From positions 1 to 62,074 of the forward strand of contig JANPBV010000381.1 of the NCBI GenBank assembly GCA_031430615.1: a stretch of 62,074 bases of DNA, written 5' to 3'. This DNA is from Ignavibacteria bacterium. GTDB lineage: Bacteria; Bacteroidota; Ignavibacteria; Tepidaquicellales; OLB5. The notes beneath the pieces were generated by a model. That model searched no databases and was not told the origin of the DNA. It worked only from the letters and a program-made list of their open reading frames with translations. Below are positions 551-58,322 of the stretch, piece after piece. How positions within the stretch are numbered: the stretch's first letter is position 1; every line of letters begins with the position of its first letter. The position numbers and the translations under genes were made by a program.

Positions 551-585
551 GTGAAACGTGAAATGTCAAACGTGAGATGTCAAAT
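551..585 (+). repeat. Tandem heptamer tract (GTSARAY)x5 in the 3' UTR
   Basis: gtgaaac gtgaaat gtcaaac gtgagat gtcaaat in strict 7-nt register, starting 5 nt after the stop at 544-546. Confidence 0.9.
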
Positions 586-663
586 GGGAAAAAAGAAATT
601 GTATTTATAGTGAAGCATATAAACAGAATATAGAATTAATCCATAAATTTAAATAATCATAAA

Positions 664-3114
664 TTGAAAAAAGCATTATTATTTTTATTCATTCTTTTCT
701 GCTCTTCAATTACTCACAGCCAGGTTGAAGAGAAGCAAAGCATCGCAATTCAGCCTCCTTTTCTGAGTGTATCACCAAACGGGACAAAAAGCTCGGTAGA
801 TATTGTTAACGGTTTTGATAATATATACCTTGGCGTTGATTTTGGTGAACCATACATTGCTACAAATCCAAGAGATCCGTTAAATAGTATTTGCGCATTT
901 AATACAAACGGGTTATACTATACGATAGATGGATATAATTGGACAAGGAACAGTCCGCAATTTGCAGGCTACAGTGTTTTAGGTGACCCTGTTATGGCAT
1001 ATGATAGTTTAGGAACATGTTTTTATGTTCAATTATATCAAAACAGCGCTATCTATGGTATTACAGTTATGAAAACTACAAATAAAGGAGCTAACTGGGT
1101 TGGACCGTATAATGTATGGAACACAACAGTTGGTTTGGCAGATAAGGAATGGATAACCTGCGATCAGACAGGCGGTCCATACAGAAACAATGTTTACATT
1201 GGATGGAGGCAGTTTGGCGCTTCAGGTATGAGATTTACAAGAAGTACAGATGCCGGTGTAACCTGGTCATCCCCGTTAACATTTACTGGCGGTCAGGGCG
1301 CATACGTAGCAGTAGGACCAAACGGTAATACGCAGGGCGGAAGTGTATATTTTGCAGCAGTCAGCGGAAGCTCATTAATGGTAAACCGCTCAACCGATGG
1401 CGGAGTAACATTTGGAGCACAGGTTAATTCTACAAATGTGAGCGGTCCGGGGGTTATTTGCGCAGGGAGATATACTGTAAAGAGCTGTATCAGGAATAAC
1501 GAATTTCCAAGAATGGCGGCAGATAACAGTTACACTTCAACAAGAGGAAATGTTTATGTAGTTTATGCCGGAAACCCAGCCGGTCCGGATAATGCTGATA
1601 TATTTCTTGTGAAGTCAACTGATTATGGAGTAACATGGACAGCGCCATTAAGAGTTAATGATGACGCTACAATTACCGATCAATGGCAGCCATCAGTATC
1701 TGTAGATAATATCACAGGAAAAATATTTATATGCTGGTATGATTCAAGAATTGATGAAGCAAGTAATCTTCAAACAAGATTGTACGCTTCTGTTTCAACT
1801 AATGGCGGGACAAGCTTTACAGCCAATCAAAATGTTTCAGATGTTTCGTTCAATCCCAATAACATGGCAGTTGGTCAGCCCGGCGGTGAAAAATATATTG
1901 GAGACTATATCGGAAATTCCGCTATATTTAATACAAGCTATAATGTTTGGATGGATGGAAGAGCAAATAACTTAAGAAGTTATGTTGGCTACTATCCTGA
2001 TTACGCTATGACATCAAACACTGCATTCAGAAATCTTGCAAACGGTGATAGCACAACATTTACCATAGTTATCCCTGCAATAAAAGGTCCGTTTACAGAT
2101 AGAATTAAGTTCAATGCTTTTGTTGACACCTTGCCGCAAAATGGTACACTTCAGATAACATTTGCAAACGGTAAAGATTCGATAACATCATTCCCTGATA
2201 GTGTAGTTGTTAAAGTAAAAGCAATAGGAAGCGTTACATCAAGGCTATACAAGCTAAATATAAGAGGAAGAAGTTCACAGTACGGAACAAATATTCATAT
2301 AAGGACAGCTGACCTGTTAGTAAATTCATCATATCTTAATATTGGAACAAACAGGAACGGCATTTGCGAATTCAAGGTAAACGGAGTACAGTATAATTCT
2401 CTGCAAACTTTGGTTTTCCCGAATTCAACTGTAGTAAACGTTCAGGCTATAAGTCCAAAGACAGTTGGATTTAACAGGTATGTATATGTAAACTGGTCTG
2501 ATAACGGTGATACAACTCACAATATAACTATTAACAGCAATTCAACATTAACCGCAAATTATAAATTGCAGTGCAGGTTAGCAATAACATCAACAGTTGG
2601 CAATACATTTGGTGATAATTATATAGATTCAGGTACTACTACAACATTTGGAGTTAATTTCAGGCATTTCAATTACAATGGTACATTTTACGTATTCCGC
2701 GGATGGAATGGTTCAGGTACCGGTTCATATTCAAGCCCGGACAGCACAGGAAATGACAGCGCTGTATCAGTTCTTATCAGGAATCCTATTGTTGAAACTG
2801 CAAGATGGACTGTGATGATAGGTATACAGAACATAAGTTCTGAAATTCCTAAGGAATATAAACTATATCAGAATTTCCCGAATCCGTTCAACCCGCAGAC
2901 CAATATCAATTTTGATATTATAAAATCAGGCATAGTAAAAATTGTAATATATGATCTTTTGGGGCGTGAAGTTGAAACGCTGGTTAACCAGGATATGGAA
3001 CCGGGAAGATACAAGATAGATTTCAACGCTAGCAACTACGCAAGCGGAATGTATATTTATAAAATTACATCAAATGAATTTGTTGATGTGAAGAAGATGC
3101 TGATTGTCAAATAG
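664..3114 (+). CDS. BNR/Asp-box repeat (sialidase-fold) secreted protein with T9SS C-terminal sorting domain
   Basis: Signal peptide; Asp-boxes STDAGVTWS, STDGGVTFG, STDYGVTWT, STNGGTSFT; C-terminal YQNFPNPFNPQT...GMYIYKI CTD; TTG start. Confidence 0.8.
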   Translation: MKKALLFLFILFCSSITHSQVEEKQSIAIQPPFLSVSPNGTKSSVDIVNGFDNIYLGVDFGEPYIATNPRDPLNSICAFNTNGLYYTIDGYNWTRNSPQFAGYSVLGDPVMAYDSLGTCFYVQLYQNSAIYGITVMKTTNKGANWVGPYNVWNTTVGLADKEWITCDQTGGPYRNNVYIGWRQFGASGMRFTRSTDAGVTWSSPLTFTGGQGAYVAVGPNGNTQGGSVYFAAVSGSSLMVNRSTDGGVTFGAQVNSTNVSGPGVICAGRYTVKSCIRNNEFPRMAADNSYTSTRGNVYVVYAGNPAGPDNADIFLVKSTDYGVTWTAPLRVNDDATITDQWQPSVSVDNITGKIFICWYDSRIDEASNLQTRLYASVSTNGGTSFTANQNVSDVSFNPNNMAVGQPGGEKYIGDYIGNSAIFNTSYNVWMDGRANNLRSYVGYYPDYAMTSNTAFRNLANGDSTTFTIVIPAIKGPFTDRIKFNAFVDTLPQNGTLQITFANGKDSITSFPDSVVVKVKAIGSVTSRLYKLNIRGRSSQYGTNIHIRTADLLVNSSYLNIGTNRNGICEFKVNGVQYNSLQTLVFPNSTVVNVQAISPKTVGFNRYVYVNWSDNGDTTHNITINSNSTLTANYKLQCRLAITSTVGNTFGDNYIDSGTTTTFGVNFRHFNYNGTFYVFRGWNGSGTGSYSSPDSTGNDSAVSVLIRNPIVETARWTVMIGIQNISSEIPKEYKLYQNFPNPFNPQTNINFDIIKSGIVKIVIYDLLGREVETLVNQDMEPGRYKIDFNASNYASGMYIYKITSNEFVDVKKMLIVK

Positions 3115-3136
3115 TGGAATAGCGAAATAGTGAATA
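3113..3136 (+). repeat. Tandem octamer tract (AGYGRAAT)x3 overlapping the stop codon
   Basis: agtggaat agcgaaat agtgaata in 8-nt register. The first unit overlaps the TAG at 3112-3114. Same word family as 57219-57266 (opposite strand). Confidence 0.75.
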
Positions 3137-3146
3137 TTATTTTATA

Positions 3147-3179
3147 AAGAGGTGGCCGGAAATGGCTGCCTCTTTTTTT
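3147..3179 (+). terminator. Intrinsic terminator
   Basis: aagaggtggcc-ggaaat-ggctgcctctt stem-loop followed by a T7 run. Confidence 0.7.
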
Positions 3180-4268: not shown

Positions 4269-5228
4269 TCACTTCTTAATTCTTGCTAATTTGTGTTCAA
4301 AAGAATTATAGCTCCCGCGCATAACCTCGGGTGATAAGCCGTATTTCTGCTTAAAGAGCCAGCTAAACGAGCTTAAGCTCTGGAAACCGACCTCAAAACA
4401 AACTTCGGTAATACTCATTTCGGTTTTCATAATGAGGCTGGATGCCTTATCAAGTCTTTTATATGTTATATACTGGTAAGGTGTATCGCCAAATACATTT
4501 TTAAATAATCTGATGAAATGAAAATTTGACATACATGCGACTTTTGCGGCATCTTCTATCTTAATTTCAGTATTAAAATTATCATCAATGTAATCCTTGG
4601 CGTCATTTATCTTTTTGTATACTTCTATCTTTGTTGATCTTTTCACGGAGGGTATTCTGTGAATTTCCTCGCCAACCTGTTTATGGATTTCAAAAAGAAC
4701 TTTTAAGAGCAGGAAAAATTCTTCTTCAAGCCACTGGTCGTCATCAAATCCGGTTTTTGACGCAAGTGTGAATTTATAGATATAAGGCATTAATCTTCCA
4801 TCGAAGGGATATATCATTTCCATAAATGTAACGGGTTGGTTTGATTCAGCCATATTGTGCGCACCACCACCCTCGAGAATATTTTCTTCACCAGCAACGA
4901 TACTGTTTAACACCTCCTCGGCGAAAGAGGGTCTGAAAAAAACTGAAAGAGTTTCGCATTCAGTTTCAGATTGTATCCTTGCGGAATACTTCTGCCCGTT
5001 ATTAAAAATTAAGTAATTGTATGGCTGAACCCTGTAGCTTCTTTGTTTAGTTGCAAAATACTCTTCACCTTTCAAAGTGAATTTTAGGGTTAATGGACCG
5101 GTATGCAGCGGGTAATAAGCTGATTTGGTTTTGTTGTAAATGACCATATTCGGCCATCCCACTTCGGGGCATGGAGAACTAACATCATAGCCTGGTTTTG
5201 TGTAATCCGGGTAGCCTTTTAGTATCAT
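4269..5228 (-). CDS. AraC-family transcriptional regulator
   Basis: C-terminal double HTH (AAKVACMSNFHFIRLFKNVFGDTPYQYITYKRL...ITEVCFEVGFQSLSSFSWLFKQKYGLSP). Start moved to the internal ATG (MILKG) because the longer ORF runs through the 5239-5280 inverted repeat. Confidence 0.8.
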   Translation of the reverse strand: MILKGYPDYTKPGYDVSSPCPEVGWPNMVIYNKTKSAYYPLHTGPLTLKFTLKGEEYFATKQRSYRVQPYNYLIFNNGQKYSARIQSETECETLSVFFRPSFAEEVLNSIVAGEENILEGGGAHNMAESNQPVTFMEMIYPFDGRLMPYIYKFTLASKTGFDDDQWLEEEFFLLLKVLFEIHKQVGEEIHRIPSVKRSTKIEVYKKINDAKDYIDDNFNTEIKIEDAAKVACMSNFHFIRLFKNVFGDTPYQYITYKRLDKASSLIMKTEMSITEVCFEVGFQSLSSFSWLFKQKYGLSPEVMRGSYNSFEHKLARIKK

Positions 5229-6219: not shown

Positions 6220-6600
6220 ATGGCAGATACAAGACCGGCAGTTGCTTCAATAACACAGGCAGATATTGAAGACGGAAAAATGATGGCGATACTTGCCTAT
6301 ATCTTTTTCTTAGTACCGTTATTTGCAGCAAGAGATAAGAAGTTTGCAATGTATCACACAGAACAGGCAATAGCTCTTTGGATTGCATTCATAGCAATTT
6401 ATATAGTTATAACAATTTTAACAATTGTGGTGAACCAGATAAGCAGCACATTAGGATGTGTAATCTCAATCCTTGGTATACTTCCCTGGATAGCTTATAT
6501 TGTATTATGGATAATGGGTTTAATGAACGCAGTTGGCGGAAAAGTAAAAGAGCTTCCGTTAATTGGCGCTTGGGGCGCAAAATTTAATTTAGTAAAATAA
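6220..6600 (+). CDS. Small polytopic membrane protein (DUF4870-like), paralog A1
   Basis: 126 aa, 3 predicted TM helices, AGGAG RBS. Clear paralog of 6629..6967 (shared ...DGK.MAI.AY.FF..PL.......MYH.EQ...L and FGxKFNLVK end). Confidence 0.65.
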   Translation: MADTRPAVASITQADIEDGKMMAILAYIFFLVPLFAARDKKFAMYHTEQAIALWIAFIAIYIVITILTIVVNQISSTLGCVISILGILPWIAYIVLWIMGLMNAVGGKVKELPLIGAWGAKFNLVK

Positions 6601-6628
6601 AATATTAGTTTTCATCAGGAGAAAATAA

Positions 6629-6967
6629 ATGGCAGAATCAACAAGACAGGTTAATTTTACACAGGAAGATGTTAATAACGGAAAAACGATGGCAATAATT
6701 GCCTACCTGATATTCTTTATCCCGTTATTGATGGATGATATGAAAAGAAATAATTATGTAATGTATCACGTTGAGCAATCAATTGTGCTGCTTATTGTGA
6801 ATATTTTAGCTGGCATAATAGGCACAATTACATGCGGTATTGGCTTTATATTATATATTCCGTGGATAGTATTTTTAATTATGGGTATGATGAATGCCTC
6901 GAAGGGTGAATGCAAACCTCTTCCGCTTGTTGGACAGTTTGGTGAAAAATTCAACCTTGTTAAATAA
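6629..6967 (+). CDS. Small polytopic membrane protein (DUF4870-like), paralog A2
   Basis: 112 aa, paralogous to 6220..6600; AGGAG RBS. Confidence 0.65.
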   Translation: MAESTRQVNFTQEDVNNGKTMAIIAYLIFFIPLLMDDMKRNNYVMYHVEQSIVLLIVNILAGIIGTITCGIGFILYIPWIVFLIMGMMNASKGECKPLPLVGQFGEKFNLVK

Positions 6968-7117: not shown

Positions 7118-7489
7118 ATGAACAATAACGATCAGTTAAATCTATTACGGATATTTTTCCTGATATCGGGAATACTGAACATTCTTTATGGTTTGGGTTG
7201 GTCAGGCTATACAATAATTGGTGGTTTGATAACATGCGGTTTAGGCTGTTTGTTCGGAGCAATACCGGTAATAAATATAATAGCATGTGTTATGGATTTT
7301 GTTTCTTACAACAGGCTTAACAGAATGAACCGCTCAGGAACATATGGTACTTTACAGTTTGCCGCAATATTTGATATAATCTCAATTTTGACAGGAAACG
7401 TTACGAGCATGATATTTGGTATAATTGCCCTGATATTTCTGAATAACGAAGAAGTGAAAAATGAGATGAGGCAAAAAGGGATTTATTGA
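7118..7489 (+). CDS. Small polytopic membrane protein with CGLGC motif, paralog B1
   Basis: 123 aa, about 55% identical by eye to 7563..7934 (LFLISGILN...CGLGC..G..PVIN.IACV.DF..YNRLN...GTY...FAAIFDIISI). Confidence 0.6.
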   Translation: MNNNDQLNLLRIFFLISGILNILYGLGWSGYTIIGGLITCGLGCLFGAIPVINIIACVMDFVSYNRLNRMNRSGTYGTLQFAAIFDIISILTGNVTSMIFGIIALIFLNNEEVKNEMRQKGIY

Positions 7490-7490
7490 T

Positions 7491-7532
7491 GTGAAACGTG
7501 AAATGTTAGAAGTGGAATGCGAAACCTGAAAC
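7491..7532 (+). repeat. Tandem heptamer tract x6 in the 3' UTR
   Basis: gtgaaac gtgaaat gttagaa gtggaat gcgaaac ctgaaac, starting 2 nt after the TGA at 7487-7489. Confidence 0.85.
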
Positions 7533-7562
7533 AATTAATTTGATAATTATCTTAATGAGAAT

Positions 7563-7934
7563 ATGCAATATAATAATCAGTTAAATACTTTAAAAACATT
7601 ATTCCTGATATCAGGGATACTGAACGCAATTTGTATATTTGTATGGTTAGGAAATACTATTTTAGGAGCAGTTGCCTTTTGCGGGTTGGGCTGTGTTATA
7701 GGAATTTTCCCTGTAATAAATGCAATAGCCTGTGTACTGGACTTTATGGTCTACAACAGGCTGAATAAATTTAATAAAACCGGTACTTATAACACTATCA
7801 GGTTCGCAGCAATATTTGATATTATATCAATTGTAACGTTTAATATTACAAGCCTTATTTTCGGGATTATTGCACTCGTAATGATAAGTAAACCTGAAGT
7901 TCAGCAGGAAATGGTTAATAGAGGGATCTATTAA
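7563..7934 (+). CDS. Small polytopic membrane protein with CGLGC motif, paralog B2
   Basis: 123 aa, paralog of 7118..7489. Confidence 0.6.
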   Translation: MQYNNQLNTLKTLFLISGILNAICIFVWLGNTILGAVAFCGLGCVIGIFPVINAIACVLDFMVYNRLNKFNKTGTYNTIRFAAIFDIISIVTFNITSLIFGIIALVMISKPEVQQEMVNRGIY

Positions 7935-7935
7935 C

Positions 7936-7980
7936 GTCAAATGTGAAATGTGAAACGTGAAACGTCAAAAAATGTAAAAC
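7936..7980 (+). repeat. Tandem heptamer tract x5-6 in the 3' UTR
   Basis: gtcaaat gtgaaat gtgaaac gtgaaac gtcaaaa (aat) gtaaaac, starting 2 nt after the TAA at 7932-7934 and running into the terminator. Confidence 0.9.
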
Positions 7981-8005
7981 CCGAAGCTATAAGTTTCGGG
8001 TTTTT
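7976..8005 (+). terminator. Intrinsic terminator
   Basis: aaaacccgaa-gctataagt-ttcgggtttt stem-loop plus T run. Confidence 0.8.
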
Positions 8006-8015
8006 GATATATGCT

Positions 8016-8043
8016 ATTTGACATTTGAGCTTTGGCATTTGAC
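8016..8043 (-). repeat. Tandem heptamer tract x4, minus-strand sense
   Basis: The plus strand reads atttgac atttgag ctttggc atttgac, which is gtcaaat gccaaag ctcaaat gtcaaat on the minus strand. It lies ~75 nt downstream of the minus-strand POT gene stop. Confidence 0.75.
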
Positions 8044-8116
8044 ATTGCAAAAAATGGATCCTTCCTTACTCCTGCTACACAGGATTAAGGCGTGGCACTT
8101 CGTTCAGGATGGAGAA

Positions 8117-9520
8117 TTATTTATTATCTACACCTTCCATATCAGTTATCATACCTTCAGTTCCGGTTAGTGGTTTTGGCTTTTCATCTCGGTTCTGTAT
8201 ATAACTTTCTTCCTTATATCTTGAAGCAATGAACATAAATATAATAGCCGTTACAAACATCAATCCGGCAAAGAACCAGAAAAAAGTTGGTGTACCAATT
8301 GTTATGTAATCCTGTAAACGCGAACTTACCTGCGCAGTAATAAGGTTACCAAGTGAAACCGATAGCAGCCACAAACCCATTACAAACGATTTCATGCTGT
8401 TTGGGGCTTGGGTATATGAAAATTCAAGGCCGGTAATAGATACCATAACTTCTGCGGCTGTAAGGATTACGTAAGCAAAGAACTGCCATAAGATGCTTGG
8501 TGTTGCACCACCTATTATTTGTATCTGCGCAACAGCAAGCAGAGCGAATGAAAATCCCGCAATGAACATTCCAATAATTATTTTTCTTAGAGGTGTAAGT
8601 TTAAATACTTTATTAATTGCAGGATAAAGAACATATGTAAAGAGCGGAATAAATATCATTATCAATATAGGGTTAATAGCCTGAATTTGCGACGCCAGAA
8701 GCTCGAATCTTACAAATCCAAGATTAACAAATTTATCCATTTGTTCAGCCTGAAGTACCCAGCTTGAGCCTGTTTGATCGAAGAGGGACCAGAACACAGC
8801 TATAAAAACATACATTATTGTCAAATTAATAATTGCCTTTTTACCCTGCTTAGAAAATATATCGCCTTTGTACTGCTTCCATCCGACAGGTGGTACTGCA
8901 ATGAATACCTTATGACCCATATAAAAAACAATAGTAGCTACAAGCATTAAAAAGCCGGGAACACCGAAAGCTATATGAGGTCCATAGCTATCAAGCAGTA
9001 CGGGAGTTAATAGTGATGATGCAGCAGCGCCAAGATTTACTGAGAAATAGAAATATCCGAATATTTTTTCGAGGAGATGTTTTTTTGCTTTTGTGAACTG
9101 ATCACCAACATGAGCTGATACGCAGGGCTTTATACCACCTGAACCCATTGCAATGAGCGTTAAACCTATTGTGAGCCCAAGTCTTGTATCATCCATTGCA
9201 AGCGCAACGTGACCAAGCACATATACAACTGAAAGGGTTATGATCGTTTTATACTTTCCCCAGAGTACATCACTTAATATTGCGCCGAGTATTGGGAAAA
9301 AATAGTTTGCCATTGAGAAGTAATGATACCATGTGGTAGCATCGGCATCAGACATTGGTTCAACTGTGCCTGAGCGATTCATGATATACTGCGTCATAAA
9401 TACGACGAGTATGGTTTTCATTCCGTAGTAGCTGAAGCGCTCGGCAAGCTCATTGCCTATAATATAGGGAATGCCTTTAGGCATTTTGTTGTCTTCAGCT
9501 GTAACAGTAGAGTTAGTCAT
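8117..9520 (-). CDS. Proton-dependent oligopeptide transporter (POT/PTR2 family, DtpT-like)
   Basis: 467 aa, ~12-14 TM; N-terminal ELAERFSYYGM PTR2 signature. Confidence 0.85.
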   Translation of the reverse strand: MTNSTVTAEDNKMPKGIPYIIGNELAERFSYYGMKTILVVFMTQYIMNRSGTVEPMSDADATTWYHYFSMANYFFPILGAILSDVLWGKYKTIITLSVVYVLGHVALAMDDTRLGLTIGLTLIAMGSGGIKPCVSAHVGDQFTKAKKHLLEKIFGYFYFSVNLGAAASSLLTPVLLDSYGPHIAFGVPGFLMLVATIVFYMGHKVFIAVPPVGWKQYKGDIFSKQGKKAIINLTIMYVFIAVFWSLFDQTGSSWVLQAEQMDKFVNLGFVRFELLASQIQAINPILIMIFIPLFTYVLYPAINKVFKLTPLRKIIIGMFIAGFSFALLAVAQIQIIGGATPSILWQFFAYVILTAAEVMVSITGLEFSYTQAPNSMKSFVMGLWLLSVSLGNLITAQVSSRLQDYITIGTPTFFWFFAGLMFVTAIIFMFIASRYKEESYIQNRDEKPKPLTGTEGMITDMEGVDNK

Positions 9521-13989: not shown

Positions 13990-14625
13990 TTGTTAGAGAT
14001 AAGCAAAATATTGCAGGCAGCATTGATATTTGTAACAATGATATTGTTAACTCTTGCATTTTTTTCACGCAGAATATTCCATAATATTAATACAAGATAT
14101 ATACTTATTACCGGCGCAGGGATAACTGTTATTTGTTTATTTTTTCTGGAATCAGTAATCATCCATTACCTCTTAAAGTTCTATCATTTTGCAGGATGGA
14201 GCGGCTATTTTCTATTTTTGTTTTTGTTCTTCGTATTACTCACCCCTTTCATTTCTACTTTATATAAGAGTATAGTTACATTTAAATTTAAAAACCTTTC
14301 TCCTCAATTAGCCATGCCTCAAACCGGCACTGTTGAAGAAAGCATTGTTATAAAAACTGAAATTCCTGAGGACAGTATAAAGCAGACATTGAGTACTGAA
14401 ATTGAAATACCACAGAAACCAGAGGAAGTACAGAAACAAGAAGAAATACAGGTACAAGATGAGGTTCTGAGTGACGAGATAAAGAAACCTGCAATAAGCA
14501 AGAAAAAAACTGTTCCCAAGAAAATTACAAAACCAAAGAAAAATACAACTGTGAAGAAAAATACAGTTCCAAAGAACAATTCAGGCGGAAAGAAAGATAC
14601 AGGCGGGGAAAATGCGAAACATTAA
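13990..14625 (+). CDS. Membrane protein with lysine-rich C-terminal tail
   Basis: 3-4 N-terminal TM helices, then an acidic EIP/EEVQKQEE segment and a KKKTVPKKITKPKKNTTVKK tail. TTG start is uncertain. Confidence 0.45.
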   Translation: MLEISKILQAALIFVTMILLTLAFFSRRIFHNINTRYILITGAGITVICLFFLESVIIHYLLKFYHFAGWSGYFLFLFLFFVLLTPFISTLYKSIVTFKFKNLSPQLAMPQTGTVEESIVIKTEIPEDSIKQTLSTEIEIPQKPEEVQKQEEIQVQDEVLSDEIKKPAISKKKTVPKKITKPKKNTTVKKNTVPKNNSGGKKDTGGENAKH

Positions 14626-17096: not shown

Positions 17097-17357
17097 GCCG
17101 CTCCCGCTGAAGCGGGACAAACACGGTCGGAATTGGTAGAACTTTCAACTACTACGTAGTTCCAAGTCAAGGCTTTCAACTGCTTCGCAGTTCCAAGTCA
17201 GGCGCGCTAAGTTTTCATAATTCAGATTTCATTATTTTGTTCTTTTGTACTTGCCGCCATGGCGGAATTGGTAGAAACTTTACACTGCTTCGCAGTTTCA
17301 AGTCAGGCGCGCTAAGTTTTCATAATTCAGATTTCATTATTTTGTTCTTTTGTACTT
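17097..17357 (+). repeat. Tandem units each starting with a tRNA-Leu 5' fragment
   Basis: Unit B (17097-17252) starts gccgctcccgctgaagcgggacaaacacggtcggaattggtaga, 44/49 identical to 16624-16672. Unit C (17253-17357) starts with the exact first 23 nt of the tRNA. 17180-17275 is repeated at 17285-17380 (105-nt period, 1 mismatch). Confidence 0.85.
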
Positions 17358-17441
17358 GCCGCCATGGCGGAATTGGTAGACGCGCTAGACTCAAAATCTA
17401 GTGAGGGCAACTTCGTAACGGTTCGAGTCCGTTTGGCGGTA
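17358..17441 (+). tRNA. tRNA-Leu (anticodon CAA)
   Basis: gccgcca-tg-gcg-gaattggtaga-cgc-g-ctaga-ctCAAaa-tctag-long variable arm-aacgg-ttcgagt-ccgtt-tggcggt-a. Cloverleaf folds by hand; CCA is not encoded. Confidence 0.9.
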
Positions 17442-17452
17442 CAAGATTATAA

Positions 17453-23581: not shown

Positions 23582-24085
23582 ATGAAAAATATTAGATATT
23601 TATTACCGGTTTTATTTTTATTTATGGGTTTATCAGTGTATGCACAAATGGATGACGGCAAAAAAGATGGTGAAAAACCCGAACCCAAAGAACTTGTTGA
23701 TGGCACTCTATACGGTGCTGATATTACTGCAGGTTCAACCATACTCACGGTCGCTGATATACTTGCTGATACAGCGGGATATTCAGGCAAAACCGTTGTT
23801 GTTAAAGGGAATATGGCAGAAATTTGCAGAGAAGCCGGATGCTGGACAGTCATAGGTGACGGTACAAGCTATATAAGAGCTATGACGCTGCATAAATTCG
23901 TTATGCCAAAGGATATGGATATAACAGGCAAAGTAGCAGTAGTTGAAGGTGTTTTCGCAGTTAAGGAGCTCACCGAAGAGCAGGCAAGGCATTTTGCAGA
24001 GGAATCAGGTAAAGACCCGAAAACAATTACAGGCCCGCAGAAAATGTACAGGGTTGCAGCGACAGGGATTAAGATACTGAAGTGA
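23582..24085 (+). CDS. DUF4920-like secreted protein
   Basis: 167 aa; signal peptide; GKTVVVKGNMAEICREAGCWTVI motif, remembered from DUF4920 proteins of Bacteroidota. Confidence 0.55.
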   Translation: MKNIRYLLPVLFLFMGLSVYAQMDDGKKDGEKPEPKELVDGTLYGADITAGSTILTVADILADTAGYSGKTVVVKGNMAEICREAGCWTVIGDGTSYIRAMTLHKFVMPKDMDITGKVAVVEGVFAVKELTEEQARHFAEESGKDPKTITGPQKMYRVAATGIKILK

Positions 24086-24123
24086 GACGTGAGATGTGAA
24101 ACGTCAAATGTGAAACGTGAAAC
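24082..24123 (+). repeat. Tandem heptamer tract x6 overlapping the stop codon
   Basis: gtgagac gtgagat gtgaaac gtcaaat gtgaaac gtgaaac. The first unit contains the TGA at 24083-24085. The terminator follows 8 nt later. Confidence 0.9.
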
Positions 24124-24130
24124 GAATTTG

Positions 24131-24153
24131 AGGGGCTGGAAAGCCCCTTTTTT
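24131..24153 (+). terminator. Intrinsic terminator
   Basis: aggggct-ggaa-agcccct followed by T6. Confidence 0.85.
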
Positions 24154-26605: not shown

Positions 26606-26680
26606 CAGTTGATAAGTTGTAACTTGTATTATGCATTAACATAGTCAATGCATACAAAGAAAAGCCAAAAAAAAATTGAT

Positions 26681-26701
26681 ATTTGGTATTTGACATTTTG
26701 T
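26681..26701 (-). repeat. Short heptamer tract x3, minus-strand sense
   Basis: The minus strand reads acaaaat gtcaaat accaaat, beginning 2 nt after the TAA of the PD40 gene (26704-26706). More degenerate than the other tracts. Confidence 0.5.
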
Positions 26702-26703
26702 TT

Positions 26704-27786
26704 TTACTCTACCCAGTCGCAAATAAAAACATTTGTTTCGCCCTGCTTTGCATTAAAGCGGTTTGAGCAGAATACAAATTTTTTACCCCCATCATGCAGA
26801 GAAAACATCGGAAAGCCGTCAAATGTATCATTGTATGTAACACGTTCATTACCTGTACCATCAACATTGATCATATACAGATCAAAATTCCTGCCCTTGG
26901 GATCATTCTGGTTGGAGCAATATATTACTCTTTTACCATCAGGAAAGAAATACGGACCGAAATTAGCGGAGCCATTGTTAGTTACCTGACGGATATTGGT
27001 GCCATCGGCATCCATAACGTAAATTTCGAGCATCCCCGGACGGATAAGTCCTGTTGCAAGTAAATCCTGGTATTCCTTTAACTTAGCAGGATCATCAAAT
27101 CTTGAAGCGCGGAAAACTATCATTGTACCGTCATAGGAATAATATGCGCCGCCATCGTATCCTGTTATGTTTGTTAACTGTTTTACATCACTACCATCAA
27201 GGTTCATTGAATACAGATCAATATCTCCATTTCGTGTTGATGTAAAAATTATCTTATCGCCTTTTGGTGAAATTGTAGCTTCAGCATCATAAGCTTTAAC
27301 ATCTGTCAGTTTAACAGGATTCGAGCCATCAACATTAGCTTTATAGATATCATAATCCGCATATAGCGCCCAAACATATCCTTTAGAATGATCGGGTTTT
27401 TGCGGACAGTTATCGCCGCCCATATGAGTTGATGCGTATAGAATACTTTTACCATCGGGGTAGAAATATGAACATGTAGTTCTGCCTTTACCTGTACTTA
27501 CCAAGTGTTTACCTGAACCATCGGTATTCATAATAAATATCTGGTCGCATTCATATTCACCGGTTGACTGAAATATTATTTTCGAGTCATCAAAGGAAAA
27601 ATATGCCTCGGCATTTTCGCCGCCGTTGGTAAGCATCTGCATATTTTTCAAATGCTTTTCCTGCGGATAAATCAGGCTATCGCTTCCTGTTAGCTGCCCT
27701 TTTGAAGCATTTATTTCGCCGGGAATCCAAATAAATGAGTATGCCATTATGCATACAAAACAAGTTAAAATTAATTTAGTCTTCAT
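26704..27786 (-). CDS. TolB-like PD40/WD40 beta-propeller repeat periplasmic protein
   Basis: Signal peptide (MKTKLILTCFV...). Repeated F.PDGK.I.Y.S...G..D.Y..N.DGS units. Start set at the internal ATG. Confidence 0.75.
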   Translation of the reverse strand: MKTKLILTCFVCIMAYSFIWIPGEINASKGQLTGSDSLIYPQEKHLKNMQMLTNGGENAEAYFSFDDSKIIFQSTGEYECDQIFIMNTDGSGKHLVSTGKGRTTCSYFYPDGKSILYASTHMGGDNCPQKPDHSKGYVWALYADYDIYKANVDGSNPVKLTDVKAYDAEATISPKGDKIIFTSTRNGDIDLYSMNLDGSDVKQLTNITGYDGGAYYSYDGTMIVFRASRFDDPAKLKEYQDLLATGLIRPGMLEIYVMDADGTNIRQVTNNGSANFGPYFFPDGKRVIYCSNQNDPKGRNFDLYMINVDGTGNERVTYNDTFDGFPMFSLHDGGKKFVFCSNRFNAKQGETNVFICDWVE

Positions 27787-27903
27787 ATCTGCAAATATAT
27801 TAAAAAAAGTAATCACGTTTTATGATAAAAGTCATATAAGAAAGGTAAGTTTGAAATGAGGGAATATAGATCCCTGATTAAGTCCTTGATGACAACTAAA
27901 TGA

Positions 27904-44038: not shown

Positions 44039-44066
44039 ATTTTGATTTTGACATTTGACATTTTGA
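44039..44066 (-). repeat. Tandem heptamer tract x4, minus-strand sense
   Basis: The minus strand reads tcaaaat gtcaaat gtcaaaa tcaaaat, starting 2 nt after the TAA (44068-44070) of the lipoprotein gene. Confidence 0.8.
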
Positions 44067-44067
44067 T

Positions 44068-44982
44068 TTAACGTCCGTATTCATCATAATACTTCTCTGC
44101 GTGCTCTTCATATCGTTTTATCAGTTCGATATTCTTCTTTTCTATTTCAGAAAGCTCATTTCTAACATCAGTGGTAATTGGCATATACCATGGAACAAAT
44201 TGATCGAAAATAAAACGTATCCTGCGGGTTTTAAATGAATACCCGTGTCTGGCATAAATTGCATTCCGGATTATTTCCAAGTCACCCTTATATAGATTTT
44301 CAACATCTTTTTTACTGAGTTCTTTTACGGAAGCATTCAGTTTAGTGACATCACCTGTTAATGATTCAATTTTATCAGGGAACTTTGGACTTTTTTCATA
44401 TAGCTCAGCCCACTTAATATTTTCGGGTAGTTCATTCTGCGGGTCATAACTAAATTCCTTTTTTAAAAGATTATATTTTCTTTCAGTTACGTAAAGTTTT
44501 TTGTCATTTGCTTTCCAGGTTCCCTCCATATAAATCTCATTGGTTTTTGCTTCTTCAATTAATACAATAAAGCTAAACTTACCGTCATATTTGTCATCCC
44601 CCGGCTCCGAAACATCAGCTTTGAAATTTGTGCCTTCCTTTGTATATTTTCCTTTAAAAGGGCGATTATTGCCTGCAACAACACTATGACCGAAAAGCAT
44701 ATCGCCGCTTGATGAATCAATAAAAATTGTTATTCGGTTTTCATATACATAATCTTTGGTTCTATCATAGACTATTGCTTCAAATCCACCGGTATATGTT
44801 CCTATTAGAGGCGAGTTATTTACTTTTGTATCTTTCTTTGGTTCATCAGAATTAGATTTTACATCAGAAGTGTTATTATCTGAAGTTGTATTTTTATTAT
44901 CATTTGTTGAATTACCTGTATCCTGTTTCTTACCGCAGGATATAAACAGGCACAATAGAAGAAAGATTGGAATTAATTTCAT
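44068..44982 (-). CDS. YARHG domain-containing lipoprotein
   Basis: MKLIPIFLLLCLFISC lipobox; C-terminal LEIIRNAIYARHGYSFK. Internal ATG chosen; 2-nt gap from the upstream gene. Confidence 0.75.
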   Translation of the reverse strand: MKLIPIFLLLCLFISCGKKQDTGNSTNDNKNTTSDNNTSDVKSNSDEPKKDTKVNNSPLIGTYTGGFEAIVYDRTKDYVYENRITIFIDSSSGDMLFGHSVVAGNNRPFKGKYTKEGTNFKADVSEPGDDKYDGKFSFIVLIEEAKTNEIYMEGTWKANDKKLYVTERKYNLLKKEFSYDPQNELPENIKWAELYEKSPKFPDKIESLTGDVTKLNASVKELSKKDVENLYKGDLEIIRNAIYARHGYSFKTRRIRFIFDQFVPWYMPITTDVRNELSEIEKKNIELIKRYEEHAEKYYDEYGR

Positions 44983-44984
44983 AA

Positions 44985-45671
44985 TTATTTTTTGAATTTT
45001 ATAAATTTCATAATAATGAGTTCGGCAATAATTAAATTTGGAATCCATCCAAGCCATGCAACTAATTGGTAAACATCCATAGGTTTTGGTTGGAATAAAA
45101 ACACAAGCAGATACTTCCAAGCCCTTAATGTTATTGCAGAAAGAGTCAAAGCAAAAGATCTTATCAGAAATTCGCGGTGAGATTTAAAATCCCATTTAAC
45201 AGCTTTCATTATTGCCATTGAAGTGAAATAAATCCAAAACAAAGCTAGCAGGCAGAAAGAGACCTGAGAGATAGCTCCCCCGTTTGCATACATACCCATG
45301 TAGAAACCTGATGGTCCGGCAAGAAGTATTACGGTAACAGCATATATCCACCCGGTATATTTATGAATTAATGCAAAATTTCTTCTAATATATACAGAAA
45401 ATTGTGTAAATCCTGCTGGAAGAACGAATATTGCTGTATATACATGTGTAAAGAATGCCAGCTTATAGAAAGGAATATCAATAACATCCTGCTTAATTCT
45501 TAAAAAAGCTACATCTGTATTGTATGGAATATATTGCAAAGATATCTTAAGTAAGAGGTATGCAAAGAAGCCATAAATTACTAATAGGAAAGCCGTAAAG
45601 ACCTTAAATCCGGTAACTTTAAATTGTGAGGGCTTCCCGGATGATATGTTATTTTGTATAGCCTGCTGCAA
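44985..45671 (-). CDS. Polytopic membrane protein (DUF2306-like)
   Basis: 228 aa, 6 TM; family assignment from memory only. Confidence 0.45.
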   Translation of the reverse strand: MQQAIQNNISSGKPSQFKVTGFKVFTAFLLVIYGFFAYLLLKISLQYIPYNTDVAFLRIKQDVIDIPFYKLAFFTHVYTAIFVLPAGFTQFSVYIRRNFALIHKYTGWIYAVTVILLAGPSGFYMGMYANGGAISQVSFCLLALFWIYFTSMAIMKAVKWDFKSHREFLIRSFALTLSAITLRAWKYLLVFLFQPKPMDVYQLVAWLGWIPNLIIAELIIMKFIKFKK

Positions 45672-56644: not shown

Positions 56645-57178
56645 ATGAAAATAAAAACAATTGAGATCTTATTTAACTCCGATGGCGGTTCATCACCAGG
56701 CGGTGGAAGTTCCGCAAGTGATGAAACTATTACACTAACCAAAGCGGAGCATGAAAAGCTTATGAATGAATCAGCTGAGCTTGTAAAGATTAAAGAAAGT
56801 ACTTCATCTGGGAATCCCGCACGTATTAAGGAGCTTGAAATTTCAGTTAATTCCCTTCAGTCAGAAAAAGAGAGCATAACAAAAAAGTATAACGAGCTTG
56901 AGTCAGGGATTAAGCAGCAATATTACGAGCAGTTAAGCGATGAGCATAAAAAAATTGCAAAGCTAATTCCAACTGTTGAAGGAATTGCAGAATATGTAAA
57001 GCTTAACACTCAAAAAGCGCCGGCAGGGAGTGACTCCGCCCGCCCGGGAGCAGGATTCAGTGATAACTTTAATTCCAAATGGGATGAACTGAATTACAAT
57101 GAAAAGGAAGAGCTGCGGAAGAAAAGACCCGAACAATGGCGGAAATTATACAGGGAGAAGTTTGGAACGAGTCCATAA
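56645..57178 (+). CDS. Scaffolding protein
   Basis: 177 aa; G/S-rich N-terminus; long coiled coil (KELEISVNSLQSEKESITKKYNELESG); basic C-terminus; between portal and capsid genes. Confidence 0.55.
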   Translation: MKIKTIEILFNSDGGSSPGGGSSASDETITLTKAEHEKLMNESAELVKIKESTSSGNPARIKELEISVNSLQSEKESITKKYNELESGIKQQYYEQLSDEHKKIAKLIPTVEGIAEYVKLNTQKAPAGSDSARPGAGFSDNFNSKWDELNYNEKEELRKKRPEQWRKLYREKFGTSP

Positions 57179-57266
57179 AGTTATAAAGTTATAAAGTTGT
57201 AAAGTTAAAAGAATTCACTATTTCATTATTTCACTATTTGATTATTTCGCTATTTATTTATTTCGC
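57179..57266. repeat. Eleven tandem octamers (4x AGTTRWAA, then 7x TATTTSRY)
   Basis: agttataa agttataa agttgtaa agttaaaa gaattcac tatttcat tatttcac tatttgat tatttcgc tatttatt tatttcgc. Starts 1 nt after the scaffold stop. The second block is the reverse complement of the 3113-3136 word (gcgaaata/gtgaaata). Confidence 0.9.
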
Positions 57267-57308
57267 AATATTAATTAACTAACTTACTAATTTAAACTAA
57301 AACAATTT

Positions 57309-58322
57309 ATGGCATCATTAACATTAGATGATTTAGCCGGTAAATTCCAGAGTGAGACCTTTAAAGCCACACTGAGAGGAACATTTACCAAAGCATTAAG
57401 CTTTTTCGGTTCAGGCTTTATGACAGAAGCGCCCGATGGAGTAATTGACCCAAATCAACTGGGGACATTCGGTAACTTACCGCAGTGGAATGTTGATACA
57501 TCAGACCCTGACCAGATAACAACATCATCAACAACACCAATTAACAAACTCTCAGCTTACAAAGACCGTTTTTCATGGATGGAGCTTGAAAAAGGCTGGG
57601 GCGCGCAGGAGCTTGTTAACACAGTTGCGGGCAGAGGCAATGATATGATCGAGGAAATTGCCGTTCACATTGGCGAGTACTGGGCATATGCTCTGCAGAA
57701 AAGAGCTATCAACATTCTAAAAGGTAACTTTGCGACCGCGCTTGCATCAACCCACTCAACAGGCAACACATATTCAGGAGCAAATATATCCAATGCAGGT
57801 GTACTTGCGGCAAAGTACAAGCTGGGTGACTGGCACAGAATGCTGAGCTTAATCTTAATGCACTCAAAAGTACACGGCGATGCAGTGACAAATAACCTTA
57901 TCACTTTCCCGGCCGGACCCGTTGGCAATACAACATTTGTTACAGGCAACCCGGGTCAGATACTCGGACTCATGCCATTTGCAGATGATGACCTTACAGC
58001 AACAGCGGGAGTTTACTCCAGTTTCCTTGGCGGAAGAGGCTCAATGGTCTACAAATTAAGGAACCGCCCTGGCAGCGCAATGACAAATAAAAATGTTATA
58101 AAAACCGGCGGCATATATCTTGAGCTTACCCGTGATGCCAAACAGGCAGGCGGTACTGATGAGATAATTACCCGTGTATCATGCATGGTTCACACACCGG
58201 GTGTTGCTTACGCTGATGCTGCCCCTGAGAATCCGACACTTGCGCAGCTTGCAACAGGCAGCAACTGGTCAAAGGTAGCCCCGGATAAACTGATAAAAGT
58301 TGCTGAACTGAAAACTACATAA
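57309..58322 (+). CDS. Major capsid protein
   Basis: 337 aa, after the scaffold; size and position typical of HK97-fold capsid proteins without a delta domain. Confidence 0.65.
   Translation: MASLTLDDLAGKFQSETFKATLRGTFTKALSFFGSGFMTEAPDGVIDPNQLGTFGNLPQWNVDTSDPDQITTSSTTPINKLSAYKDRFSWMELEKGWGAQELVNTVAGRGNDMIEEIAVHIGEYWAYALQKRAINILKGNFATALASTHSTGNTYSGANISNAGVLAAKYKLGDWHRMLSLILMHSKVHGDAVTNNLITFPAGPVGNTTFVTGNPGQILGLMPFADDDLTATAGVYSSFLGGRGSMVYKLRNRPGSAMTNKNVIKTGGIYLELTRDAKQAGGTDEIITRVSCMVHTPGVAYADAAPENPTLAQLATGSNWSKVAPDKLIKVAELKTT

Follow-up and report, generated by a model that had tools for sequence, protein, structure and literature searches.

Strand-polar arrays of a GTSARAY heptamer at gene ends in an Ignavibacteria contig and in other bacteria

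GTSARAY arrays of the window

A stretch of DNA from an Ignavibacteria bacterium (contig JANPBV010000381.1, 62,074 nt, here called the window in its full 62-kb length) contains short tandem arrays of the degenerate heptamer GTSARAY at the 3′ ends of genes. Array coordinates are those of the window unless a locus number (L) is stated. The tracts are members of a family of degenerate tandem arrays spread through the genome, (GTSARAY)3-7 together with 8-nt variants, and they follow a placement rule: the coding strand carries the purine-rich sequence, the array starts no more than one unit from the stop codon, and convergent genes each have an array of their own. Seven heptamer arrays and two to three octamer variants were found in the window, all outside the bodies of open reading frames (ORFs) (Table 1). 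A preliminary description of this DNA had named three tracts between 7491 and 8043 and four further copies; all were recovered, the three in 7-nt register, and all seven were in the sense orientation relative to the preceding gene, as had been proposed. They lie between a stop codon and a terminator or the next cistron and are, by position, in 3′ untranslated or intercistronic sequence. That list was incomplete, since both octamer arrays at 3106-3137 and 57211-57277 had been overlooked.

Table 1. Repeat arrays and associated hairpins of the window, with the genes they adjoin.
Position	Strand	Feature	Units or sequence	Adjacent gene and placement
551-599	+	heptamer array	GTGAAAC GTGAAAT GTCAAAC GTGAGAT GTCAAAT GGGAAAA AAGAAAT	starts 4 nt past TAA of ORF 91-546 (type IX secretion C-terminal sorting domain, Pfam); intercistronic, following ORF begins at 664
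3106-3137	+	8-nt variant, same family	GTCAAATA GTGGAATA GCGAAATA GTGAATAT	period 8 at 3109-3134 by Tandem Repeats Finder; covers TAG stop (3112-3114) of ORF 664-3114 (type IX secretion sorting domain)
3146-3175		terminator		downstream of octamer array 3106-3137
7491-7532	+	heptamer array	GTGAAAC GTGAAAT GTTAGAA GTGGAAT GCGAAAC CTGAAAC	starts 1 nt past TGA of ORF 7118-7489 (123-aa membrane protein, no Pfam match); intercistronic, next start codon at 7563
7936-7970	+	heptamer array, TGA in all three frames	GTCAAAT GTGAAAT GTGAAAC GTGAAAC GTCAAAA	starts 1 nt past TAA of ORF 7563-7934; runs into hairpin 7976-8005
7976-8005		two-way terminator hairpin, read directly from the sequence	AAAACCCGAAGC-TATAA-GTTTCGGGTTTT and T-run	common to convergent genes 7563-7934 (+) and 8117-9520 (-); array on each side
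8016-8050	-	heptamer array	TTGCAAT GTCAAAT GCCAAAG CTCAAAT GTCAAAT	sense for POT transporter gene 8117-9520, 66 nt past its stop; adjoins hairpin 7976-8005
24082-24123	+	heptamer array	GTGAGAC GTGAGAT GTGAAAC GTCAAAT GTGAAAC GTGAAAC	TGA of first unit is the stop of ORF 23582-24085 (DUF4920)
24130-24149	+	intrinsic-terminator-like hairpin	GAGGGGCTGGAAAGCCCCTT then TTTTAA	6 nt past array 24082-24123
26674-26701	-	weak heptamer array, GTC-type units	(ACAAAAT) GTCAAAT ACCAAAT ATCAATT	starts 2 nt past TAA of ORF 26704-27816 (PD40 beta-propeller protein)
44039-44066	-	heptamer array, GTC-type units	TCAAAAT GTCAAAT GTCAAAA TCAAAAT	starts 1 nt past TAA of ORF 44068-45120 (YARHG domain protein)
57211-57277	-	octamer array, probably related to the family (tentative member)	GCGAAATA ATCAAATA GTGAAATA ATGAAATA and more units	antisense to ORF 57309-58322, 31 nt upstream of its start

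The arrays are real and occur far beyond chance. Tandem Repeats Finder reported period-7 arrays at 547-575, 7933-7969, 8016-8046 and 24082-24124, with super-periods of 14 nt and 21 nt. A strict scan (at least three units, each matching at least 5 of the 7 positions, with a mean of at least 6) returned five arrays where 0.15 were expected from Markov shuffles, the shuffle maximum being 2. The two-unit pattern GTSAAAYGTSAAAY, with up to two mismatches, matched 28 times against 7.07 expected, a number reached in 0 of 100 dinucleotide-preserving shuffles. Six of the seven window arrays begin within -4 to +4 nt of a same-strand stop codon (P~1e-9 for random placement in the 10.8 kb of intergenic DNA).

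The two ORFs that precede arrays 7491-7532 and 7936-7970 are 123-aa paralogs (59% identity), neither with a Pfam match, and both end in GIY, followed by the stop codon and then the array. They form one of two neighbouring tandem pairs of small membrane-protein paralogs (6220-6967 and 7118-7934); the other pair (6220-6600 and 6629-6967) is DUF4870-like, and its members share the C-terminal residues FNLVK but are not followed by arrays.

Folding analyses of single arrays gave z scores of -0.4 to +1.3 for four of them and -1.9 for 24082-24123, none clearly beyond shuffles. The RNA of 541-690 was not more structured than shuffled sequence (z=+0.78), and that of 7480-7600 was less structured (z=+1.89). 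The convergent pair was predicted to fold very differently: the region 7925-8060 gave -45.4 kcal/mol (z=-7.0) with both arrays paired. Array 8016-8050 is complementary to part of 7936-7970, and the pairing lengthens the stem of the shared terminator into one long hairpin. The terminator hairpin at 7976-8005, which a simple terminator scan did not list, forms the core of this fold. At the gathering threshold, tRNA-Leu was the sole Rfam match in the whole window, and relaxing the search to E values up to 10 in 7300-8200 gave sub-threshold chance matches only.

A binding platform as such is conceivable. The multimeric RNA-binding platforms to which the tracts had been likened, those of TRAP, CsrA and Hfq, did not fit the 7-nt GUSARAY period. 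TRAP recognizes GAG/UAG triplets spaced 2-3 nt apart (5-6-nt spacing), CsrA recognizes GGA in hairpin loops, and the distal face of Hfq recognizes 3-nt A-R-N repeats. In the arrays, GGA is absent and GAG occurs only within GTGAGAY units.

Dispersed copies of one motif outside genes could also be remnants or ends of mobile elements, such as miniature inverted-repeat transposable elements (MITEs), insertion sequences (IS) or relatives of repetitive extragenic palindromic (REP) elements and bacterial interspersed mosaic elements (BIMEs), or else a degenerate array resembling iterons or clustered regularly interspaced short palindromic repeats and bound as double-stranded DNA. REP/BIME sequences are enterobacterial imperfect palindromes of about 35 nt, mobilized by RAYT transposases; they are dispersed extragenic elements, transcribed at gene 3′ ends or between cistrons, and affect mRNA 3′ ends. 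They too are often found after stop codons. GTSARAY, in contrast, is a non-palindromic 7-mer in direct tandem. Single arrays were not palindromic (z ~0) and did not form the REP-type imperfect hairpin (z -1.9 to +1.3). When the arrays were masked and their 150-nt flanks compared, no similarity was found beyond that of paralogous coding sequences, and on this ground an identity as MITE or IS ends was rejected. The match to an IS or MITE terminal repeat that the preliminary description had named as grounds for abandoning its proposal was thus not found. Neither terminal inverted repeats nor spacers were detected, and the units are contiguous. As to binding of double-stranded DNA, the helix has 10.5 bp per turn, and a 7-bp period leaves the sites off one helix face. 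The mobile-element explanation is already largely refuted and, with its double-stranded variant, is barely credible.

Phase-variable contingency repeats lie in an ORF or promoter, and the arrays follow the stop codon. In the single near-identical contig compared (L001, 99.93%), unit numbers were the same and one single-nucleotide difference lay beside an array.

Placement, unit structure and persistence in other bacteria

A search for four exact units of GTSARAY, with each species represented by one genome, gave at least 120 loci, a sample of the taxonomic spread rather than a census, and 27 contigs of a viral collection also matched. The combined loci (L002-L148) came from more than 10 phyla among the matches listed. 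Hosts included Ignavibacteria, Chitinophagaceae, Saprospiraceae, Flavobacterium, Anaerolineae and other Chloroflexota, Pyrinomonadaceae, Nitrospira, Desulfococcaceae, Verrucomicrobia, Gemmatimonadota, Patescibacteria and several Proteobacteria; among the carriers were the isolates Flavihumibacter cheonanensis WS16, F. fluminis RY-1, Flavobacterium collinsii CECT 7796, Niastella soli MAH-29, Sphingobacterium daejeonense, Lutibacter agarilyticus DSM 29150 and Thermithiobacillus tepidarius DSM 3134.

To score placement, ORFs of at least 100 aa were called in the listed loci and the window, and distances were taken from the 5′ end of each array to the nearest same-strand stop codon and from its 3′ end to the nearest opposite-strand stop codon. 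Stops within -25 to +10 nt were on the same strand in 65 cases and on the opposite strand in 8 (p=3e-12), so that the stop proximity and strand concordance foreseen for other genomes were borne out. Stops lying outside the array, at 0 to 10 nt, were also counted alone, because TGA occurs in arrays of GTG units, which can thereby terminate any ORF reading into them; the bias persisted (32 vs 5, p=7e-6). The remaining counts of this kind refer to the listed loci unless another set is named. The bias was 33:4 for arrays of mixed units and 0:1 for pure single-unit repeats (n=18), and it was stronger for GTG-type and mixed arrays (27:2) than for GTC-type arrays (6:3). In low-GC genomes, that of the window included, the class located after stops was dominant (31 vs 6).

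A count that does not depend on gene calls gave the same polarity. Where two arrays on opposite strands lay within 150 nt of each other, 31 pairs were convergent (5′-GTSARAY ... RTYTSAC-3′) and one was divergent (p=1.5e-8). The gene's own stop codon lay inside the array in 36 cases, 30 of them TGA. Of the stop-adjacent arrays, 15/69 were intercistronic and 20/69 had an inverted partner; a strict hairpin finder placed terminators downstream of 2/69, which is probably an undercount. In this wider set, 35/230 arrays fell inside called ORFs. Within 30 nt of a start codon, 29 arrays were antisense and 13 sense, a bias due mainly to loci of GC content >=0.45, and sense arrays just before start codons were rare (8 within 10 nt).

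Unit structure was determined from 92 arrays, found by lag-7 self-similarity, in which no stretch fitted the four-unit pattern by which the loci had been retrieved, a procedure in which some detection bias remains. Four positions were conserved (1, G 84%; 2, T 89%; 4, A 92%; 6, A 80%) and three toggled (3, G 60% or C 31%; 5, A 51% or G 42%; 7, C 41%, T 34% or A 18%). Decay along the arrays was polar, with slightly better preservation at the ORF-proximal end. The first unit scored 6.41/7 and the last 6.11 (p=3e-5), and adjacent units differed at 1.28 positions at the 5′ end as against 1.65 at the 3′ end (p=0.002). Arrays were 3-7 units long with no evident preference for four. The units GTGAAAC, GTCAAAT and GTGAGAC contain no GG runs.

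Orthologous sites showed both persistence and turnover. The window segment 23544-28905 is syntenic with L107, a locus of an Ignavibacteria metagenome-assembled genome, at about 74% nucleotide identity, and both of its arrays (2/2) were present at the same gene ends there. The array at the end of the DUF4920 gene has six units in the window and in L107, and all of the differences between the two (7/7) fell at positions 3, 5 and 7, with 0/24 at positions 1, 2, 4 and 6; the remaining intergenic DNA of that locus could not be aligned. At the L107 ortholog of 26704-27816 the array is better formed than in the window (GTCAAAT GTCAAAA TCCAAAT GTCAAAC). In L149, a metagenomic ortholog of the POT locus (89% amino-acid identity), 3/3 arrays were kept with different unit numbers and types. 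Look-ups of the exact proteins of ORFs 23582-24085 and 7118-7489 found no contigs.

Two further observations were made at the POT locus. In L149 (5700-5960) the second of the 123-aa paralogs is reduced to a C-terminal remnant (...NRGIY, then stop), and the array after the remnant is intact (GTGAAAT x3, GTGAAAC); the array has outlived its gene. In a second ortholog, L151, a 14-nt unit, CAATTAATAAATTG, occurs three times past the stop codon of the POT gene and ahead of the terminator (4499-4545), in place of the GTSARAY array, so that the periodic character of the site was kept and the unit replaced.

It had also been proposed that the tracts are specific to genes for envelope proteins. Such a platform in the 3′ untranslated region would bind a multimeric RNA-binding protein controlling the stability, translation or membrane localization of secreted and membrane-protein mRNAs. 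All seven array-followed genes of the window are envelope-related (7/7), and single-stranded, periodic arrays would suit a protein of this kind. As claimed, the genes for DnaE, thioredoxin, GlmS and RelA/SpoT have no tract; however, a crude hydrophobicity predictor scored 32 of the 57 window genes as envelope-like, and about 25 of these 32 have no array either. In the other genomes the same predictor scored 27/47 array-followed genes as envelope-like against 317/771 other genes of the same loci (odds ratio 1.9, p=0.03), and the association was not significant in low-GC loci alone (p=0.11). It is at best modest, and accessory or operon-terminal genes may account for it. Close relatives lose the arrays yet keep the genes, and no bias in functional class was seen for comparable arrays by Rehm et al. 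(PMC4692102). Single-domain RRM proteins, which are abundant in Bacteroidota and bind G/U/A-rich single-stranded RNA, offer a lead only; one of them, RbpB, was tested on three copies of GUAGGAUA (10.1101/2021.04.27.441718). The arrays do not mark envelope-protein mRNAs specifically, and an envelope-specific platform is quite unlikely to be their role. The earlier interpretation is in this way supported in part, for placement, orientation and the lack of an Rfam, IS or MITE match.

Known heptamer repeats and the origin of the placement rule

The class to which the arrays belong is known. As summarized in PMC4679880, the survey of Mrazek (2007) found that heptanucleotides rank first in abundance among the classes of long simple repeats in most of the bacterial genomes it covered, and proposed polymerase slippage as the cause. 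The window arrays are likewise 7-nt head-to-tail repeats beyond chance, dispersed and mainly non-coding, and like the surveyed repeats they are patchy across phyla; the summary in PMC4679880 reports neither a strand or stop placement rule nor a GTSARAY unit from that survey.

The placement rule itself is also known. Rehm et al. (2015, PLoS One; PMC4692102) described arrays of GGGAATC in Xanthomonas and of GGGGA(C/T)T in Nostoc, spread genome-wide, on the coding strand at or over the stop codon, and on the non-coding strand where they lie upstream of ORFs. There were 70-75 convergent inverted pairs per genome, most arrays were transcribed, the same loci were occupied in two species with varying lengths, the neighbouring genes were functionally random, and G-quadruplex formation was offered as the explanation in this, the only detailed study of placement. 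GTSARAY arrays share the stop-proximal placement on the coding strand, the convergent pairs and the conserved loci with variable length and sequence, and GTGAAAC agrees with GGGAATC at 5/7 positions. They differ in hosts (Ignavibacteria, Bacteroidota, Chloroflexota, Acidobacteriota and others) and in the mixing of units within an array through the S, R and Y toggles. The arrays of Rehm et al. have G-runs of at least three and a preference for four units, whereas GTSARAY arrays lack G-runs and have 3-7 units. In the window, only octamer array 57211-57277 fits their start-side antisense class. The motif had not been recognized as a described RNA motif; no Rfam family matched it, but the heptamer class and its placement rule were already published. 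GTSARAY is thus a new sequence family, in new phyla, of a known class with a known rule.

Other heptamer systems are less close. Direct repeats of TAACTGA, described by MacGregor (2015; PMC4679880) in Beggiatoaceae, cyanobacteria and some Bacteroidetes, are intergenic, occur in 2-6 or more copies, are oriented relative to genes and contain stop codons in the unit, and binders of the S1, cold-shock or CsrA type were proposed for them. Most TAACTGA arrays occur in forward orientation a few nucleotides ahead of a start codon, whereas GTSARAY is another unit and lies after stops. Short tandemly repeated repetitive (STRR) heptamers CCCCAGT, TTGGTCA and CAACAGT were reportedly described in heterocystous cyanobacteria by Mazel et al. 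in 1990. Like GTSARAY, STRR are dispersed, non-coding, lineage-specific tandem heptamers, with different units and hosts; to our knowledge, no rule is documented for their placement next to stop codons. ToxR is described as binding TTTTGAT heptad repeats in the ctxAB promoter of Vibrio cholerae, where copy number matters (10.1101/2021.05.14.444153). That heptad resembles the complement of GTC-type units (ATCAAAA, compare 44039-44066); as described there, it is a double-stranded promoter element upstream of one operon, in contrast to the genome-wide GTSARAY arrays located after stops.

The explanation that we favour, with about even confidence in the package as a whole, is a self-renewing, strand-polar 7-nt family that would be transcribed as a single-stranded spacer at gene ends and possibly read by a single-strand-binding factor. 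Renewal would proceed by 7-nt and 14-nt slippage with the fresher units next to the ORF, and selection would exclude arrays from coding DNA and from DNA close to start codons. Judged by their position, the arrays would be transcribed as part of the mRNA and might serve as a generic, purine-rich single-stranded spacer. The possible reader would be a sequence-specific factor that binds single strands and covers about 7 nt, obvious candidates being cold-shock-domain, S1 and RRM proteins. Arrays rich in GTG units would additionally put UGA in all three frames. The functional step, which is proposed from sequence, is the weakest part of this explanation.

Several observations weigh against it. The arrays of the POT locus are dispensable, being absent in L150, L151 and L152 (85-90% amino-acid identity); since arrays were retained in L107 and L149, they are long-lived at some sites and variable and dispensable elsewhere. 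In high-GC taxa many arrays adjoin a start codon on the non-coding strand (23 vs 10 within 30 nt), as also reported by Rehm et al. (PMC4692102), which speaks for a polarity of the DNA itself and not for a function in RNA. Permuted control heptamers were about as common in viral contigs as GTSARAY (27 and 18 loci vs 27), and GTSARAY is therefore one of several heptamer families and not a unique word; mixed-unit arrays numbered 15 for GTSARAY and 9 and 3 for the permuted controls. The pattern of conserved and toggling positions could derive in part from the reshuffling of pre-existing unit types or from motif-based detection. Finally, arrays of GTC units and the Xanthomonas GGGAATC arrays contain no sense stop codons.

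The last of these points bears on a role in gene-end punctuation, in which the arrays would provide fail-safe UGA codons in all frames, because 7 and 3 have no common factor, or the A-rich 5′ and U-rich 3′ arms of an extended two-way terminator, or both. The stronger polarity of GTG-type and mixed arrays, the predominance of TGA among the stops located inside arrays, and the presence of stops in all three frames of arrays 7491, 7936 and 24082 accord with the first form. The excess of convergent pairs, which puts the U-rich arm 3′, where an intrinsic terminator needs it, and the lengthened terminator stem of the 7925-8060 fold accord with the second. However, sense arrays of the GTC type (8016, 26674, 44039 and that of L107) are stop-free, and GGGAATC arrays, stop-free on both strands, follow the same rule; three-frame stops therefore cannot be the general role and were rejected as a general explanation. 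As for terminator arms, some stop-adjacent arrays are intercistronic, just 20 of 69 have an inverted partner, and in the window the arrays stand beside or ahead of ordinary hairpin terminators, which they do not replace. Three-frame UGA and terminator-arm extension explain subsets of the arrays, not those of the GTC type nor GGGAATC, and punctuation is an unlikely general account.

The main rival to a transcribed and possibly read spacer is a neutral or selfish strand-polar microsatellite without function, which we consider possible although doubtful as the full account. It would grow through slippage, chiefly where the purine-rich strand has its 5′ end, or through a transcription-driven strand asymmetry, and growth would halt at constrained DNA, selection protecting coding sequence and the regions of start codons, so that arrays would pile up past stop codons and pairs on opposite strands would become convergent. 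Turnover and loss in the close relatives L150-L152, variation in unit counts and types at orthologous sites, and the fresher 5′ ends all accord with this model. An ORF abutted on the 5′ side of the array, whether with its stop or its start, in 94 cases against 23 (within 30 nt), a pattern likewise seen by Rehm et al. (PMC4692102), and the adjacent genes were functionally unremarkable in both studies. Heptamers are moreover the commonest long simple repeats, for which slippage was proposed (Mrazek 2007, as summarized in PMC4679880). What the neutral model does not readily explain is that one motif, of thousands of possible heptamers, makes up all arrays of the window and its relatives. Nor are four kept and three two-state positions expected from plain slippage. 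Arrays were retained at 2/2 gene ends in L107 and 3/3 in L149 although the flanks were unalignable, a GNSARNY-like word recurs across phyla, and directional growth is itself hypothetical.

Since GTSARAY obeys without G-runs the rule that GGGAATC obeys, the rule is independent of G-quadruplexes and must therefore come from a factor that reads sequence or from a strand-polar repeat dynamic. A broader reading, which we hold to be speculative and on balance improbable, is that GTSARAY and GGGAATC arrays are one phenomenon, a phylum-spanning, quadruplex-independent gene-end grammar with a conserved single-strand reader of GNSARNY-like heptads after the stop codon. Were this so, a cold-shock-domain, S1 or RRM protein, RNA polymerase or the terminating ribosome would be candidate readers, and heptad arrays would constitute a general bacterial code for regulation or punctuation in the 3′ untranslated region. 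That G-poor heptamers obey the published placement rule in Ignavibacteria, Bacteroidota, Chloroflexota, Acidobacteriota and others removes the G-quadruplex account. Culturable carriers in which the accumulation of heptamers could be tested include Flavihumibacter, Flavobacterium collinsii, Niastella soli and Sphingobacterium daejeonense. In practice, short-read assemblies break at such arrays, and gene 3′ ends can be miscalled because of them.

Further repeats in and beyond the window

One of the control patterns, GYARAST x4 (viral-contig loci L176-L202), proved to be another genuine heptamer family with mixed units such as GCAGAGT/GCAAAGT, which after rotation is GTGCARA. There are therefore several distinct heptamer families whose variable positions alternate between two states. 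Period-7 arrays other than GTSARAY showed no clear polarity by purine or stop content in the few cases available. An extreme density of arrays was seen in a 25-kb contig of 61% GC filed as viral (IMGVR_UViG_3300031867_000530; L005/L020), in which heptamer arrays of at least five unit families (GTGARAT, GGGAAAA, GCCTGCT, GGGTGCT and AGCAGAT) occupy nearly all intergenic regions, typically in the arrangement stop-(GGGAAAA)n-(ATYTCAC)n-start.

Within the window, a second, unrelated repeat unit also begins exactly at a stop codon. This octamer array on the plus strand (57175-57211; (ATAAAGTT) x 4.8) starts at the TAA stop of ORF 56645-57178 and is followed directly by the antisense array 57211-57277. 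At 17126-17442, a 105-nt tandem duplication (1.9 copies, 98% identical) adjoins the upstream side of the intact tRNA-Leu(CAA) gene (17358-17442) and carries about the first 23 nt of tRNA-Leu. This 5′ part, GCCGCCATGGCGGAATTGGTAGA, is found at 17253 and 17358, with a third partial copy near 17126; the duplication may be an integration or excision scar at the tRNA, or a duplicated promoter and leader. ORF 13990-14625 contains period-18 tandem repeats at 14412-14602 (2.7 and 5.7 copies by Tandem Repeats Finder), which would encode repeats of six residues.

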